Shown one piece after another: positions 58,807-62,741 of a DNA stretch of 64,000 bases (position 1 is its first letter; the number at the start of each line of letters is the position of its first letter). Source of the DNA: Acidobacteriota bacterium (lineage in GTDB: Bacteria; Acidobacteriota; UBA890); contig CBDCBL010000005.1 of assembly GCA_965214245.1 (NCBI GenBank), positions 28,657-92,656 on the forward strand, read 5' to 3'. The notes beneath the pieces were generated by a model that made no database searches, was not told the DNA's origin, and saw only the letters and a program-made list of their open reading frames with translations. A program made the translations under genes and the position numbers.

Positions 58807-59839
58807 CTAGCATCGACCAATACGTCGTTGCAGAGCGTCGCAAACTGGCACGTATTGCACCCGCGAGTCGTCCACGGGTTCCGGCTGCGTGAGGAGATGG
58901 CGGCTGAAAAATGCGTGCATGTCGGCAAAGAACTTGCGGGCCGCCTCCTCCTTCCCTTCGCTGGGAGTCGGCCCTAGCCCGCCATACCAGCCGAAAGCGT
59001 GTGGCTGACCCGGATAGATGACGGACTCAACTTCTTTTCCGGCTGCCTTCAGGTCCGGGATCAGGAACTCGTTGTGGATGTCGACGAACACCTCTTGCCT
59101 CTGATTGAGGCCGCCCACCGCGAGGAAGATAGGGCCACTTATCTTACGCAACTCCTCCTGGGCCGATCGTCGGATCTCTGGGGTGAGGAACTGGCGAGGA
59201 TCCTCGAGCAGTCGCTGTCCAACCCGGGCCACATCAAGCATGTCGTTCAGGCCAGCGATGAGACCATCGTAGCCGGACCACAGCGGCGGCTCTTCTGCGG
59301 CGACGGCAGCAACCTCGTTCTCGGCGGCCACCTTCAGGGCCAAGTAACCTCCATAACTGACGCCGTACACGACCGCACTGTTCGGGTCCACTGCGGACAT
59401 GCTCTTCACGTGGTCGACAATAGCCAGTTGGGGATCTCCCAGCGGCGGAGCGTCCCCCGGGAGACCCTGTTGGGCGAGAACCGTTACGTACCCTGCCGCC
59501 AGAAACCGGGTGAAGGTCGGGTTCGTCAGAGCCCTGATCTTCAATCGACTCATCTCACCAACAACGCCGTCCCTAGCCTCGCTCGCGGCGGGCGAGCTGA
59601 TGATCACAACGGCCGGGAAAGGACCTTGGCCTGGGGGTCTGCGTAGTACGCCGATCGCAACCTGTCCATCGTGGGTCTCAGCAGAGAGTTCCTCGACCGG
59701 GCTGATCTCCTCAGAGATCGATGGCCTAGTGACAGGGGATTGCGCTGTGGCAAAGGACACGCCCCAGCACAGGATCAACAGGGCCAAGACAGCGAATCGC
59801 CCCGTACCGAGCGGTTCGAGGATTTCGTAATGACCGAGG
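58807..59839 (-). CDS. Secreted alpha/beta hydrolase; original 5' codons displaced to ~61300-61313 by the IS1111 insertion
   Basis: GPFPAVV, GVSYGG nucleophile elbow, YPGQPHAF; removing the IS restores MVGKTLGHYEILEPLGTG... Confidence 0.8.
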
Positions 59840-59916
59840 TAGCGTAAGGAAAAAGGGCGTTTCTTCACTGGTAAAGTCCGGTTTGCCCAACCAACTCAAC
59901 CAGGAGAAACGCCCTC

Positions 59917-60944
59917 ATGGAATCGTATGTTGGCATCGACGCACACTGCAACGCGGGACTGGAGCTCGCCGCCATAGAGGCACGCAGTGGAGAACTGCTA
60001 TGGCGGGACCGTTGTCGGCTCGATGGGGATCTGTTGCGAGAAGCGATCGGTCGGGCTCCCTGTCCATGTACGGTGGTATTCGAGCAGGGAGAGTTAGCCA
60101 CGTGGCTGCACCTGGCGCTTTCGGGTTGCTGCAAGAACCTGATCGCTGCCGACCCCCGGCGCAACCGCTTGATCTCAACCTCGCCCGACAAGGACGATCC
60201 GTTCGATGCGCTGGCCTTGGCGCAGCTGGCCAGGGGGCGATATGTGCGGGAAGTCTATCAGCCACCTGTGGCGTTCTTGAACCTGCGGCTGCAGGTGCGC
60301 CACCACGATCGACTCAACCGCCACATCAGCGCCTTGAAGAACCAGGTCAAGGCCCTGTTCCGCTACCACGGGATTCCGGTAGTAGGCGCCGACGTCTATT
60401 CACCGGAGCACCGGCCCGCATTCCTGAAGTGTTTGCCCGAAGCCGCCCGGCCGCCGGGCGAAGACCTGCTGGGCATCCTCGATGTGGCCGCGGAGAAAAA
60501 GGACGCAGCGCTGCAGTTGCTAGTCCAACACGGGCGGCGGTTTCCACCCGTCAGACGGCTTATGACGGTTCCGGAGATCGGCAACGTCAGGGCAGCGACC
60601 TTCGCCGCGTATCTGGTCACCCCCACCCGCTTCCCCTCCCGCTCTCACATCTGGAGCTACTGCGGCTTTTCGGCCTCACCCGACGACGAAGCGGCTCACA
60701 CATCGAGCCGGTACGCCTGCGACGAGGCTTCAACCGGCACCTGAAACGGGTCATCAAGAGCGCCGTCGAGCGAATGGTCTTGCGGCAGGCAGATCCTTTC
60801 GCCGCGGCGTATCACGTTCGACTCGAGCGCGGGACGTTACCGACCCGGGCCAAGCTGGCGATTGCGCGAAAGCTCATCGACGTGCTGTGTGCCCTTTGGA
60901 ACAGCAAGGAGGACTACGATCCAGAACGTGTGAGAGTTGTCTAA
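59917..60944 (+). pseudogene. IS110 recombinase/transposase with a frameshift at ~60667
   Basis: YVGIDAH, VVFEQG, KDDPFDA (DEDD); after WSYCG the TTTTC run shifts frame to FGLTRRRSGS...GFNRHLK...AIARKL. Confidence 0.88.
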
Positions 60945-61280
60945 TTGCCCGGCGTCGACACGCGCGGTTTGCGCCTTGTCACATGCGCAGGTCCCACCGC
61001 CTGCGGCGGGACCTGCGCCGCGGGAAGCCTCAACAAAACCCTTAGACTTCGAGTCTCCGACCAAGGTTAGGCTCCGCGGCCCCGTAGTCCCAGACGCAAC
61101 CATAGGCCTCGAGTCTCGGATAGGAGCATGGGCTGCTCGTTCAAGCCCCAACAATCCTGAAGTTGCTCGCGCCGCGACCCATGACGGTCGACCCCCCCAA
61201 ACGACGAAGCCAAACCGGACCAACGCCCCAGGCCAACTTGAACATCTCTACCCCATCTTTAGGGAGAGTGCGTCTGTTGA
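60945..61280 (+). ncRNA. Putative bridge/seek RNA-encoding region of the IS1111 element
   Basis: Non-coding 3' end with a duplicated motif (61043, 61103), each copy ending in a sequence that matches the target end or the donor end; strand and exact ends are inferred. Confidence 0.65.
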
Positions 61281-61373
61281 CCTTTTTCCTTATAGGAGGG
61301 TCTTGCCGACCACTGTGGGTAGTCCGTTCCGGGAAGCGTGGGCGGCTAGCCTATGTGCAATGGCAGTTACGTT

Positions 61374-62741
61374 GGATGTGTCCCGAAGTTTGTAGAAAAT
61401 CGTCTGGCGTGGCTCCGAGCTTGGACGTTTGATGTTACCTGCTACGCGGCCAACTCCTCCTGTTGGTCGATGATCGCGGCGAGATGCCGGTACCCGTCGA
61501 TGCGGCGCATGCGGATCTGCCCGAAGGCGATCAGCCCCCACAGCAGCGTCACCCCGGCCGCCTCGGTGCTGAACGATCCCTGGGTCTTGGTACGGCGACG
61601 GAACTCGCGGTTGAGGTTCTCCAGTGGGTTCGTCGTGCGCAGCGTCTTGCACATCGGTTTGGGGAACTCGTAGAAGGTCAGCAGCACCAGCCCCGCTTCC
61701 TCGAGGCTGCGCGCCACCGCCGGCACCAACCTCGACCACTTGCGCACGAAGTTGCTGTACGCGGCCCTCGCCTCGCTGCCGTTTGCCGCCTTCACGATGC
61801 GGTCCCAGTCTCGTTTCAGCTCGTCGTGGGCGTGTGACGGGCAATGCTTCAACAGATTCTTCCACTTGTGCTGAAGGCAGCGCTGCACCTTCGCTTCGGG
61901 CCACACCGTCGTCGCCTTGGCCAGCCCTTTGTGGCCGTCGGCGATGATCAGCCGGGGCGGCCGAAGACCTCTTTGCTCTAGGTCCTCGATCAGCCACTTC
62001 CAGTGACACCCGGCCTCCGAAGCGGCCCGACGCAACGCCACCAACACCTTGCGCCCATCTTCCGCCACTCCCAGCGCGGCGAAGATCGGCACCGACACGA
62101 CCTGCCGCGCCAACCTCACCTTCAGGTGGAACCCGTCCAGGTACACGATCGGGTACGACTCACCGGTCAGATCGCGCTCGCACCACGTCCCGAACAGCTT
62201 CTTCAGCCGCCCCACCACCCTCGAGATCGCGCTCTTCGAGAGGTTCGCTTCACCCAGCAGCGGCGCGAGCGCCTTGCGGATCCGTCGGCTATTTGCACCC
62301 GCCAGGTACACCCCTAGAATCGCCTCGTCGACTTCCTCGGTGCGCCGTTGATACCGCGGCAGGATCGTGCTGCGGAACTCCCCGGTGCTGCCGTCCTCTC
62401 GCAGCAGCCGTCCCCGTGGTACCTCCAGATCCTGCGGCCCCTGCGCCATCGTGATCTGCCGCCGATACGTCCCGTGCCGATATCCTCGCCGCGAGCCGTT
62501 GCGCTCGTACGGCCCGCATCCCAACGCCTCGGCGAGCTCCTCCTCAAGCGTGATCGTAATCGCCTCCTGGATGCGGCTGTGCAGCAGCTCCTGGATGGCG
62601 CTACGGAACTCGATGACCGATACCTCTCCCGTGCTACCGTTGCTCATGGTGTGACCTCCTTGTTGTCGCCGTTTCCAGCGACTCGTTTTTCCTGCTCGGA
62701 GGTTACGCCATTTCTTTTTCTACAGGACTCGGGACGGATCC
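61374..62741 (-). mobile_element. IS256-family insertion sequence
   Basis: 26-bp imperfect IRs GGATGTGTCCCGAAGTTTGTAGAAAA vs GGATCCGTCCCGAGTCCTGTAGAAAA; flanks GTTACGTT / TCTACGTT (partial TSD). Confidence 0.88.
61442..62647 (-). CDS. IS256-family transposase (intact ORF)
   Basis: GYRHG, LEVPRGR, YLDG, IIADGHKGL, QRCLQH, LRTTNPLENLNREFRRR. Confidence 0.95.
   Translation of the reverse strand: MSNGSTGEVSVIEFRSAIQELLHSRIQEAITITLEEELAEALGCGPYERNGSRRGYRHGTYRRQITMAQGPQDLEVPRGRLLREDGSTGEFRSTILPRYQRRTEEVDEAILGVYLAGANSRRIRKALAPLLGEANLSKSAISRVVGRLKKLFGTWCERDLTGESYPIVYLDGFHLKVRLARQVVSVPIFAALGVAEDGRKVLVALRRAASEAGCHWKWLIEDLEQRGLRPPRLIIADGHKGLAKATTVWPEAKVQRCLQHKWKNLLKHCPSHAHDELKRDWDRIVKAANGSEARAAYSNFVRKWSRLVPAVARSLEEAGLVLLTFYEFPKPMCKTLRTTNPLENLNREFRRRTKTQGSFSTEAAGVTLLWGLIAFGQIRMRRIDGYRHLAAIIDQQEELAA

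Follow-up and report, generated by a model that had tools for sequence, protein, structure and literature searches.

Positions 59839-61298 of the window (the whole 64,000-nucleotide stretch of Acidobacteriota DNA that was analysed) very probably, at roughly 0.9, represent an RNA-guided insertion sequence of the IS110 family, IS1111 type, with a 3' non-coding region predicted to encode a bridge/seek RNA of ~180 nt (60989-61166). The IS110/IS1111 assignment made in the initial annotation holds: PF01548 and PF02371 score above their cut-offs, the inverted repeats are sub-terminal, insertion is site-specific, and the non-coding DNA is far longer on the 3' side of the gene (354 nt, 60945-61298) than on the 5' side (78 nt, 59839-59916). 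The element is a new, divergent member of an already known kind, neatly resolved but ordinary.

Boundaries, copies and the transposase gene

The element and its main parts are as follows.

59839-61298, + strand: insertion sequence, 1460 bp, with one copy of the AG core counted at the right end
59845-59856, + strand: left sub-terminal inverted repeat, TAAGGAAAAAGG (repeat pair I4)
61281-61292, + strand: right sub-terminal inverted repeat, CCTTTTTCCTTA (repeat pair I4)
61222-61228, + strand: internal inverted repeat AACGCCC, which pairs with GGGCGTT at 59855-59861
59854-59915, + strand: 5' leader hairpin, AGGGCGTTTCT / AGAAACGCCCT (repeat pair I8; 11 nt, 100% complementary)
59917-60670, + strand: N-terminal DEDD part of the transposase gene; the reading frame breaks at the T-run (60667-60670)
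60672-60944, + strand: transposase gene, C-terminal part (GLTRRRSGS... to the stop codon), in the other frame (59883-60944)

The genome to which the window belongs contains seven full copies of the element, 1460-1464 bp long, and two left-end fragments. The full copies are 98.9-100% alike, which implies recent spread, and they stand in at least six different flank contexts. An uninterrupted paralogous site (...ATGACCGAGGGTCTTGCCGACCA...) is present in the same genome, so the element boundaries are correct to within the GAGG shared by both junctions, inside which the placement of the window copy is ambiguous. The seven copies and this empty site indicate that insertion is site-specific and produces no duplication beyond the shared core. 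The sub-terminal repeats, described from the start as perfect and 12 bp long, are exactly that (100% complementary, 6 nt from each end as drawn; the IS1111 group is recognized by sub-terminal repeats of ~7-17 bp), and their two arms change together in one intact relative, L017. The AACGCCC/GGGCGTT pair is kept in all ten elements compared, with both sides changed in L048 and L050, and a repeat search found a second internal pair (61211-61220 with 59876-59885, pair I12). A larger mobile unit that takes in conserved flanks was considered and rejected, as the flanks of two copies (L003 and L004) diverge beyond 5-10 nt and relatives with other guides lie in unrelated flanks. The only related loci in the genome collection were found in one metagenome-assembled Acidobacteria genome.

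The product of 60672-60944 is collinear with the intact 341-aa protein of L017, an orthologue that shows 82% identity over the first 250 residues; 341 aa is the length of the transposase in intact relatives, and the IS1111 group ranges from 330 to 350 aa. PF01548 (DEDD_Tnp_IS110) matches the window ORF at 34.7 bits and L017 at 36.4 bits (cut-off 29), and PF02371 (Transposase_20) matches L017 at 45.6 bits (cut-off 21.3) across profile positions 2-87, the whole profile; in the window copy the frameshift splits this domain, and profile positions 2-44 alone match. The NCBIfam model NF033542 (IS110) aligns end-to-end (1-342 of 343) at 118.7 bits, under its cut-off of 140, which indicates a divergent lineage. 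The IS1111 motif GL-P----S(t)G reads GLTRRRSG here, two residues shorter and with no proline, and among 29 relatives S258 is nearly invariant and G259 invariant. A search of solved structures with the single protein gave no match, and a profile of the 29 relatives matched Protein Data Bank entries for the transposases of IS621 (8wt6, E 5.9e-07) and ISCro4. Upstream of the gene, the leader hairpin would cover the ribosome-binding site.

The frameshift is not private to the window copy: all seven copies are frameshifted by a T4 or T6 run eight codons ahead of the conserved Ser-Gly motif, and L004 has an additional stop at codon 29. No autonomous copy is thus shown in this genome, and the seven are either non-autonomous relics or reliant on an intact copy absent from the assembly. 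Metatranscriptome contigs of a ~93-95% relative cover parts of 59840-61088 with an in-frame T2 (such contigs show no RNA ends, strand or level). Alternatively, the copies might not be dead, and the T-run might be a recoding or switching site, with either a +1 slip on UUU-UUU-C in T6 or slippage among T4, T5 and T6 that toggles the transposase. T4 and T6 do occur within one homopolymer in a gene that has no other coding indel, contigs of independent runs include both alleles (T4 in X1, T6 in X5), and the near-identity of the seven copies speaks of recent spread. The T allele is also unlinked to other polymorphisms, for at 60973, 60980 and 60987-60989 L004 (T4) carries the same changes as L005 and L007 (T6), which means that the run has changed more than once or has been converted. 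However, the in-frame T5 is absent from all seven copies and from the contigs of two DNA runs (a weak point, since contigs drop rare variants). No slip site is plausible in T4, the relatives read simply TTC at this place within a normal open reading frame, non-autonomous elements may be mobilized by a transposase acting in trans, and recoding is not described for the family in the literature consulted. We consider recoding improbable and keep to the reading of the copies as relics or dependents.

The predicted RNA and its target guides

The predicted RNA, the target guides and the two halves of the target are located as follows.

60989-61014, + strand: 5' hairpin of the predicted RNA (helix 1; 10 pairs, 3 of them compensatory, 91% of cells paired)
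61017-61080, + strand: predicted target-binding stem-loop (helices 2 and 3, internal loop, and a small hairpin at 61044-61056)
61096-61166, + strand: predicted donor-binding multiloop, closed by helix 5, with hairpins at 61104-61116 and 61130-61148
61059-61065, + strand: left target guide GACCAAG, identical in sense to the top strand of the left flank plus core
61035-61043, + strand: right target guide AAAACCCUU, complementary to the top strand of the core plus right flank (61296-61304)
59832-59838, + strand: left target half plus core (GACCG + AG), 6/7 to the left target guide; Leu-Gly codons of a kinase-like N-terminus on the minus strand
61299-61312, + strand: right target half GGTCTTGCCGACCA, which on the minus strand reads as the beginning of a kinase-type gene (start codon and first codons, V-V-G-K-T)

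To compare guides and fold, we used ten relatives that have other insertion sites; L051 (24% identity), L045 (which lacks the 3' region), L019, L023 and L027 were left out. The RNA consensus contains 38 pairs in seven helices, and 96.3% of its cells are paired, compared with 32-51% when the partners are slid. Compensatory changes on both sides were present at 10 of the 38 pairs, compared with 2.9 in shuffles, none of 500 of which reached 10. Helix 5, which closes the donor multiloop (61096-61100 with 61162-61166), has five pairs, three of them compensatory, and is paired in 100% of cells. Folded alone, 61020-61180 is no more stable than shuffled sequence (z +0.36; 124 of 200 shuffles at least as stable), and the whole 355-nt region folds with a z of -2.86. 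Rfam gave no family above its gathering score over 59500-61700; a weak hit to RT-3 within the gene, on the minus strand (20 bits, gathering score 40.5), was taken as chance. A covariance model built from the RNA found the seven copies and nothing else in the window's genome and, elsewhere, a full-length RNA match immediately 3' of the transposase gene in each of six distant elements (protein identity 26-31%), with one further match that is partial; L019, L023 and L027 gave none at E up to 1. The duplicated motif pointed out earlier in the 3' region is real, with 81% identity over 21 nt between 61040-61060 and 61100-61120 (repeat search, family D4).

Taken alone, the short matches between guides, flanks and element ends are at chance level; the conserved RNA fold and the co-variation with flanks in relatives lift them above it. 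Over the six target classes 72 guide positions vary, and 60 of these agree with the flanks of the same element, compared with a mean of 22.8 and a maximum of 34 for 265 deranged pairings of guides and flanks; no other of the 720 permutations does as well as the true pairing. When the window copy represents its class the count is 58/72, again the best of the 720. The initial annotation had placed the left target guide at 61059-61066 and had singled out for comparison whether homologues with other targets keep this sequence. They do not: the strand, which lies in a loop of the conserved fold, tracks the left flank of L041, L044, L048 and L050 and in part that of L043 and L049, and its identification as a guide is borne out. 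The right target guide, which had not been convincingly assigned, lies on the 5' side of the same internal loop, at 61035-61043, and CAGACGC at 61091, offered as a partial match to a target guide, overlaps the likely right donor guide ACGCAAC instead. L041, the RNA of which is the same as that of L017, occupies a site that fits the left guide at 8/8 and the right guide at 8/9.

Five distant elements agree with the match between guides and flanks when read by eye, the reverse complement of the 5' loop strand corresponding to core plus right flank (10/10 in L020). Left junctions of distant elements were placed by means of the left target guide in L022, L021, L026 and L018, and the same approach found none in L025, L020, L029 and L024. 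Among the distant elements, a script search gave convincing sub-terminal repeats in L022 only. Within the window's own genome, the guides mismatch every occupied site at two positions, an A facing C in each guide. The 7/8 match initially given between GACCAAGG (61059-61066) and the left flank is correct for two of the seven copies, L001 and L003; the left flank of the other five, TACCGAGG, matches at 6/8.

The conserved 3' region could instead act as DNA, with binding sites for the transposase, and the resemblance between loop and flank could reflect DNA-DNA or protein recognition. The further inverted repeats near the ends (59855-59861/61222-61228 and 59876-59885/61211-61220) could be such protein sites. 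Against this, compensatory changes hold seven helices intact on one strand, and one guide is identical to the top strand while the other is complementary to it, the two overlapping at the core, which is the pattern shown experimentally for the family. We regard a purely DNA-level role as extremely unlikely and treat the region below as the template of a predicted guide RNA.

Predicted donor guides, core and circle junction

The following features bear on the joining of the element's ends.

61120-61126, + strand: left donor guide AUAGGAG, identical to the last 7 nt of the element
61094-61100, + strand: probable right donor guide ACGCAAC, overlapping the 5' strand of helix 5 (61096-61100)
59839-59845, + strand: first 7 nt of the left end, GTAGCGT (right donor half), 6/7 complementary to 61094-61100
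61292-61298, + strand: left donor half plus core (ATAGG + AG), as read from the letters
61277-61282, + strand: TTGACC, putative -35 of a circle-junction promoter
59840-59845, + strand: TAGCGT, putative -10 of a circle-junction promoter

ATAGGAG occurs at 61120-61126 and 61292-61298, and its count in the window, three against 2.11 expected, is ordinary (38 of 100 shuffles contain at least three). Among ten close relatives, the word after G/A at the left donor position is identical to the final 7 nt of the element in seven and agrees at six of seven letters in the other three, and it changes together with the element end in L050 and in five distant elements, where the words ATAGAAC, ATAGGAC, ATAGAGCG, ATAGACG and ATAGAAC are identical to the ends of their own elements. 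The left donor guide proposed at 61120 thus follows the element end in close and distant relatives alike. The right donor guide is most likely 61094-61100. Between close and distant groups it matches the left end at 6/7, 6/7, 6/7 and 5/7; within the close group it does not follow the left-end variants of L043 and L046 (GCAGCAT) or L048 (GTACCGT), and its strand is part of a helix that co-varies within the RNA. Weak complements of the left end at alignment columns 143-149 and 222-228 (G-U allowed) were rejected as guides because they are rich in wobble pairs or are the partner strand of helix 5, and 61149-61161, on the 3' strand of the multiloop, was rejected for lack of consistent complementarity.

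The word GAGG, initially described as a shared core, does stand at both junctions (59836-59839 and 61296-61299), but the crossover core is probably AG (59837-59838 on the left, 61297-61298 on the right): the right junctions of L042, L043, L046 and L047 read GAGC, placing the fourth letter on the target side.

Joining the ends would give a circle junction reading ...TTATAGGAG-GTAGCG..., in which TTGACC and TAGCGT are separated by a 17-nt spacer. No joint across the two ends was listed among the contigs of four sequencing runs, a result that carries no weight on circles since contigs lose rare forms. In the putative junction promoter proposed from these hexamers, hexamers and spacing are present and conserved, but the -10 is weak, agreeing with TATAAT at three of six positions, below the threshold of the promoter scan. 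TTGACC is exact in 9 of 11 close loci (the near-duplicates L046 and L047 counted separately), and five distant elements have TTGAC(A/T) at the same 9-nt spacing from ATAG. The junction geometry is likewise conserved in the close relatives and in three distant ones, with the hexamers TTGACA and CATTAT (read by eye). The promoter scan, which covered the linear element, found no promoters. ISEc11 is said to possess a circle-junction promoter, Pjunc. The window element shares with Pjunc-type promoters of IS110/IS1111 circle junctions a -35 in the right end, a -10 in the left end and a 17-nt spacer across the junction; unlike them, it has a weak -10 (TAGCGT), and its promoter is putative.

The features above are consistent with a cycle, modelled on the family, in which the element would excise as a circle, the joined ends would form a promoter (-35 from the right end, -10 from the left) driving both the transposase and the RNA, the stem-loop at 61017-61080 would carry target guides on both sides of its internal loop and the multiloop at 61096-61166 the donor guides, and the recombinase-RNA complex would exchange strands between circle junction and target at the 2-nt AG core.

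Kinase-gene targets and comparison with known systems

The target (...GACCGAGGGTCTTGCC...) is ...ACC-NAG-GGT-YTT-GCC..., within codons 4-8 of paralogous Ser/Thr kinase genes, and the element is always oriented antisense to the kinase. The same site is occupied in the seven copies, the two fragments, L017, L041 and L042. At three of nine occupied sites only 12-16 kinase codons are present, and these are joined in frame to proteins of other kinds, namely an S9/DLH hydrolase, a PMT_2 glycosyltransferase and an ankyrin protein. L017/L041 and L042, which come from other samples, differ from the window copy at exactly the two mismatching guide letters. These positions face synonymous third positions of Leu and Lys codons, so one RNA could address many paralogues.

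Gene conversion or segmental duplication among kinase paralogues that share their 5' ends, rather than RNA-guided insertion, could have been the main route by which the seven copies spread. All occupied sites share the same 15 nt, ACCGAGGGTCTTGCC, from which the empty paralogues differ, and the best fit to the guides, a paralogue on contig C10 (...GGCCAAGGGTTTTGCC...), is among the empty ones. Some copies also share longer flanks: L005 and L008 at least 285 nt and L002, L004 and L006 ~180 nt on the left, and L002, L005 and L007 ~70 nt on the right. However, to the right of L003 and L004 the likeness to the other copies ends after 5-10 nt, a stretch that is simply the target, and the left flanks of L001, L003 and L007 are alike for only 25-30 nt. 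L041 and L042 occupy the same position in other samples and in other sequence variants, and those relatives whose guides differ are inserted in unrelated sequences to which their own guides fit. Spread mainly by conversion therefore strikes us as quite improbable, and we retain RNA-guided insertion. Beyond it, we raise one speculation that we consider unlikely, if less so than the alternatives above: the lineage may have specialised on the first codons of Ser/Thr kinase paralogues, with guides as if retuned between paralogues, and the element or its target may take part in moving a kinase promoter-plus-leader before other genes.

Known targets in the family include repeats, attC sites and transposon ends. 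The titles and abstract openings listed in searches of the open-access literature on IS110/IS1111 contain no report of a kinase-gene target, and the supplements of PMC11208160 and PMC11187229, which hold many predicted RNAs and targets, may cover relatives. The element shares a ~340-aa DEDD transposase, sub-terminal repeats and a long 3' non-coding region with the seekRNA elements ISEc11, ISPa11, ISKpn4 and ISPst6, as these are described in the consulted part of PMC11187229. For IS1111 elements, Siddiquee et al. 2024 also describe there a top-strand match located 5' of the bottom-strand one, with overlap between them in the target, and the two short RNA segments found here have the same order and overlap. 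The predicted 5' hairpin and target stem-loop together span ~92 nt (60989-61080), near the short seekRNA forms of 82-96 nt, and the whole predicted RNA (~178 nt) compares with long forms of 148-172 nt, sizes that are taken from a table in PMC13604230. In contrast to the seekRNA elements, the window element reaches no more than ~30% protein identity with the annotated IS110-family genes of the plasmid collection, scores under the NCBIfam cut-off and has a Ser-Gly loop two residues shorter; its target is protein-coding sequence of a paralogous gene family, its copies are frameshifted, and the case here comes from reading sequence alone.

Insofar as the consulted text of Durrant et al. 2024 (PMC11208160) and the structures 8wt6-8wt9 describe IS621, the predicted RNA resembles its bridge RNA in having two domains, target and donor, in each of which the left guide pairs with the bottom strand and the right guide with the top strand, and in having the short core in all four guides; the C-terminal domain of the transposase is also related (profile search of the Protein Data Bank). 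The same text places the IS621 RNA in the left end, whereas here it lies in the right end, with the order of guides in the loop reversed. The donor guides here also lie in a multiloop with two hairpins rather than in a simple internal loop, and the sub-terminal repeats are long. A donor loop within a multiloop is reported there for many IS1111 orthologues.

Because the mechanism is established knowledge since 2024, the element is of value mainly as a worked example. Two of its features are less usual, a natural target in conserved coding sequence at the start of kinase genes and the inactivation of every genome copy at one homopolymer in two different ways; neither alters understanding of the family. 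In a divergent Acidobacteria lineage, four guides (the right donor guide probable), a probable core and a putative junction promoter can be assigned by sequence comparison alone. The element thereby adds a natural predicted bridge RNA of IS1111 architecture with a donor multiloop, and a small natural data set of tolerated mismatches, which concern the left target guide at the letter immediately 5' of the core.

Boundaries, copies and relatives of the element

The 1460-bp IS1111-type element occupies 59839-61298. The perfect 12-bp sub-terminal inverted repeat described in the initial annotation was recovered by sequence reading and by a repeat search, with arms at 59845-59856 and 61281-61292. 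Between them lies an ORF matching Pfam DEDD_Tnp_IS110 and Transposase_20 whose frame is broken at a T4 run (60667-60670); the conserved transposase C-terminus resumes in a different frame, up to 60944, and 354 nt of non-coding sequence lie 3' of the ORF. The 4.64-Mb genome holding the window (10 contigs) contains seven full copies, 98.9-100% identical, and two left-end fragments of 232 nt. When the copies were aligned with their flanks, all seven started after ...ACCGAGG and finished in ...ATAGGAGG, with GTCTTGCCGACC directly after the right end in all copies except L006. The same genome has an empty site (...ATGACCGAGGGTCTTGCCGACCAA...) on contig C8, and comparison with the aligned copy ends therefore indicates no duplication past the shared GAGG.

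A protein search found matches at E <= 1e-20 in 12 of 401 genomes of the phylum, one of them close (G215, 82% identical); the 341-aa gene of the G215 copy, L017, is intact, and this copy lies in the same kinase site. A large protein collection yielded 49 relatives at E <= 1e-30, mostly on ~1.5-kb contigs, and 11 loci were recovered from metagenome contigs (identity 50-96% for 10 of them); their 3' regions align over their full length, with the scaffold kept and a few short strands variable. At the frame break the intact relative reads CTTC versus CTTTTC in the window. The homopolymer has four T in L001, L002 and L004 and six in L003, L005, L006 and L007, such that none of the seven copies in this genome is in frame; L004 has an additional stop at codon 29. 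The break falls 8 codons ahead of the Ser-Gly motif, which is essential according to the literature. Both alleles recur in contigs from separate public sequencing runs, and a ~93-95% relative in a metatranscriptome assembly has the in-frame state.

Several other features were observed in and around the copies. Inward of the sub-terminal repeats, the two ends share further inverted repeats (59855-59861/61222-61228 and 59876-59885/61211-61220), the first of which is kept in 10/10 relatives, has changes in both arms in L048 and L050, and could be either a protein-binding site or a pairing of 5' leader with 3' region within one transcript. A 71-nt right-end piece (window 61207-61277), including the strongly conserved block ACGCCCCAGGCCAAC, stands alone at L010 (C9:545673-545744, 90% identity) and also in contigs of public runs X1 and X5. 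The left-end fragments L008 (C9:976887) and L009 (C7:518448) are both cut at the window equivalent of 60052 by identical inserted DNA, comprising another insertion sequence (~9 copies) and a ~100-nt repeat (~10 copies). A Mutator/IS256-type transposase gene (PF00872, E 3.4e-79; 61442-62647, minus strand) lies ~75 nt from the right end, and in L006 an IS256-type element end adjoins the right end directly (...ATAGGAGG followed by GGATCC...). A weak match to the Rfam RT-3 RNA within the transposase gene (60730-60863, minus strand; 20 bits versus a gathering score of 40.5, E 0.059) is probably due to chance.

A predicted RNA and its target guides

RNAalifold analysis of ten sequences predicted 38 pairs in seven helices, including the following consensus features.

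Features of the predicted RNA (window coordinates)
60989-61014: 5' hairpin
61017-61023 with 61074-61080, and 61027-61030 with 61069-61072: first stem, enclosing an internal loop
61044-61056: small hairpin in the internal loop of the first stem
61096-61100 with 61162-61166: second stem, enclosing two hairpins
61104-61116 and 61130-61148: the two hairpins in the second stem

In an independent count, 96.3% of cells were paired, versus 32-51% when partners were slid by 1-3 columns, and 10 pairs showed changes on both sides versus 2.9 +/- 1.3 in shuffles, none of 500 reaching the observed value. Single-sequence folding was less telling (z -2.86 for the whole region, +0.36 for 61020-61180). The duplicated motif noticed initially corresponds to the two small hairpins and their adjoining strands (repeat family D4). 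A covariance model built from the alignment of close elements matched the seven copies in their own genome and nothing else. It also gave full-length matches in six distant elements (L025, L022, L021, L020/L029, L026 and L024), each directly 3' of a transposase gene of 26-31% protein identity, and matched the target stem-loop alone in L018.

Loop strands and junctions were taken out of each element for comparison of guides with flanks. In the first loop, the 3' strand (window CCGACCAAGGUU) is a copy of the left flank plus core, and the 5' strand (window AAGGGTTTTG...), when reverse-complemented, reads core plus right flank. In five distant elements, compared by eye, reverse-complementing the 5' loop strand gives the final 2-3 nt of the element followed by the adjacent flank.

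Guides and flanks of individual elements (distant elements: reverse complement of 5' loop strand versus end plus flank)
L044, left: flank CCCGGAGG, guide ACCGGAGG
L044, right: flank GAGGCGTAT, guide AAGGCGTAC
L048, left: flank CCGGGAGG, guide CCGGGAGG
L048, right: flank GGCGGGTGG, guide GGCGGGTGG
L050, left: flank CCACAGG, guide CCACAGG
L041, left: flank GACCTAGG, guide GACCTAGG
L020, distant: ACGACTTGTT, 10/10
L025, distant: ACTTTTAAT
L021, distant: CGGCATGAC
L024, distant: AACTTTGG
L022, distant: AC-GAATGGC, one mismatch

For a permutation test, each target class was represented by a single element (L041, L043, L044, L048, L049 and L050); the window copy, L017, L042, L046 and L047 were omitted because their classes were already covered, and just the variable positions were scored (5 + 7 per element). 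Agreement with the element's own flanks was 60/72, compared with a mean of 22.8 and a maximum of 34 for the 265 derangements, and the true assignment was the single best among 720 permutations; substituting the window copy as class representative gave 58/72, again the best of 720. The loop strands thus vary with their own flanks, the behavior by which the initial annotation had proposed to judge its guides. Its left target guide is retained at 61059-61065, and the right target guide, which it had left unassigned, can now be placed at 61035-61043 (left and right in the terms of Durrant et al., PMC11208160). According to Siddiquee et al. (PMC11187229), IS1111 elements have the segment complementary to the top strand first, with both matches overlapping in the target, and the guide order here agrees in both respects. 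The guide strands are identical across 7/7 copies in the genome.

Proposed donor guides, core and circle junction

Downstream of the second small hairpin, the adjoining strand (window CGGAUAGGAGCAU) holds the final 7 nt of the element, matching the end at 7/7 positions in 7/10 aligned elements and at 6/7 in L017, L041 and L048; in L050, strand and end have changed together to ATAGAAG. In 5/6 distant elements, the equivalent word is repeated at the element's end, 132-170 nt downstream, where it immediately follows a TTGAC(A/T) box and a short repeat (ATAGAAC, ATAGGAC, ATAGAGCG, ATAGACG and ATAGAAC). The left donor guide at 61120-61126 therefore stands as originally read.

The internal duplication points to a right donor candidate, the 7 nt lying 5' of CAU and of the second small hairpin. 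In the window element they read ACGCAAC (61094-61100), whose complement GTTGCGT matches the left end GTAGCGT at 6/7. With left junctions placed using the left target guides, the corresponding strands read GCTTTAT versus GCATTAT in L026 (6/7), ACATTAT versus TCATTAT in L021 (6/7) and GCTTTTT versus GCATTAT in L022 (5/7). These matches and that of the window indicate that the strand changes with the left end between the close and distant groups; within the close group, it fails to track the left ends of L043/L046 or L048. It also doubles as the 5' strand of helix 5, co-varying with its RNA partner. We consider 61094-61100 a probable, not settled, right donor guide.

Right junctions read GAGC in L042, L043, L046 and L047 versus GAGG in the window, and the right target guide tracks this fourth letter in L043, L046 and L048. 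The target thus contributes this fourth letter, G 59839 is the first base of the left end, and the core common to both junctions is probably AG. GAGG is indeed common to both junctions, as initially stated, but the crossover core is probably AG and not the whole of GAGG; in distant elements 2-3 nt are shared. An exact TTGACC (61277-61282 in the window) is present in 9/11 close loci (TTGACT in L041, TTGCCC in L049), and the TTGAC box lies a constant 9 nt from ATAG, distant elements included. Joined in a circle, the ends of the window element would read TTGACC-17 nt-TAGCGT, and those of L022, L026 and L021, by eye, TTGACA-17 nt-CATTAT, with the candidate -10 hexamer in the same place as the right donor half. 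A junction promoter is a known feature of this family, and Prosseda et al. reportedly described one in 2006.

Insertion into kinase genes

On the opposite strand, the flanks encode (M)VVGKT followed by LGNYEILEPLGAGGMGEVYRARD..., the start of a Ser/Thr protein kinase. Pkinase (Pfam, E 1.3e-45) was found in the flank of L017, and full kinase reading frames lie beyond the insertion in L004, L005, L006 and L008. The element is antisense to the kinase in every case, ~15 nt past its start codon, and the copies occupy at least six distinct contexts. L003 and L004 resemble the others over just 5-10 nt of right flank. All occupied sites read ACCGAGGGTCTTGCC, with one mismatch to each target guide, and the two mismatched positions are the third letters of the kinase Leu and Lys codons. 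Elements of other samples depart from the window copy at precisely these two guide positions, the one in the left guide being A, U or G, and a kinase paralogue in the same genome that fits the window guides better is empty.

In 4/9 occupied sites only 12-17 kinase codons lie beyond the insertion point. In three of these four the frame runs from the kinase codons into an unrelated protein; in the fourth, L003, it ends after 29 codons.

Kinase-leader joins
Window 58807-59838, minus strand: Peptidase_S9/DLH hydrolase
L007:2-1519: PMT_2 glycosyltransferase
L009:1715-2038: ankyrin repeats

Same-strand, in-frame joins in 3/4 cases are unlikely to have arisen by chance. An ORF from GTG 59868 (minus strand; window 59839-59868, in the left end) encodes MKKRPFSLRY in frame with the interrupted gene, and this frame is also open in L017; no promoter for it was found. 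If outward transcription occurs, insertion could leave the kinase with a replaced N-terminus. Among 11 uninterrupted GKTLxxYxI sites in the genome, each read for 260 residues, only 5 kinase starts have an HRDLKP motif. Three keep the glycine loop without HRDLKP (two end after 56 and 114 codons, the third is open through all 260), and the remaining three are without the glycine loop, two ending after 11 and 15 codons. Even where the element is absent, this kinase family seems to be changing.

Together, the initial finding is correct and well delimited, and it is now fuller. Judged by sequence, the element has structural hallmarks of the IS1111 group and predicted RNA features of seekRNA/bridge RNA systems, as a distant member, since the closest annotated plasmid genes are ~30% identical, it scores under the NCBIfam cut-off and its Ser-Gly loop is shorter. 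In the distant relatives L020-L026 of the same phylum, at 26-31% protein identity, the donor portion of the RNA (UAGGCC-CGAGUCUC-GAUAG...) is still conserved; bridge RNAs of many uncatalogued IS1111-like elements could thus be annotated with a covariance model built on this lineage.
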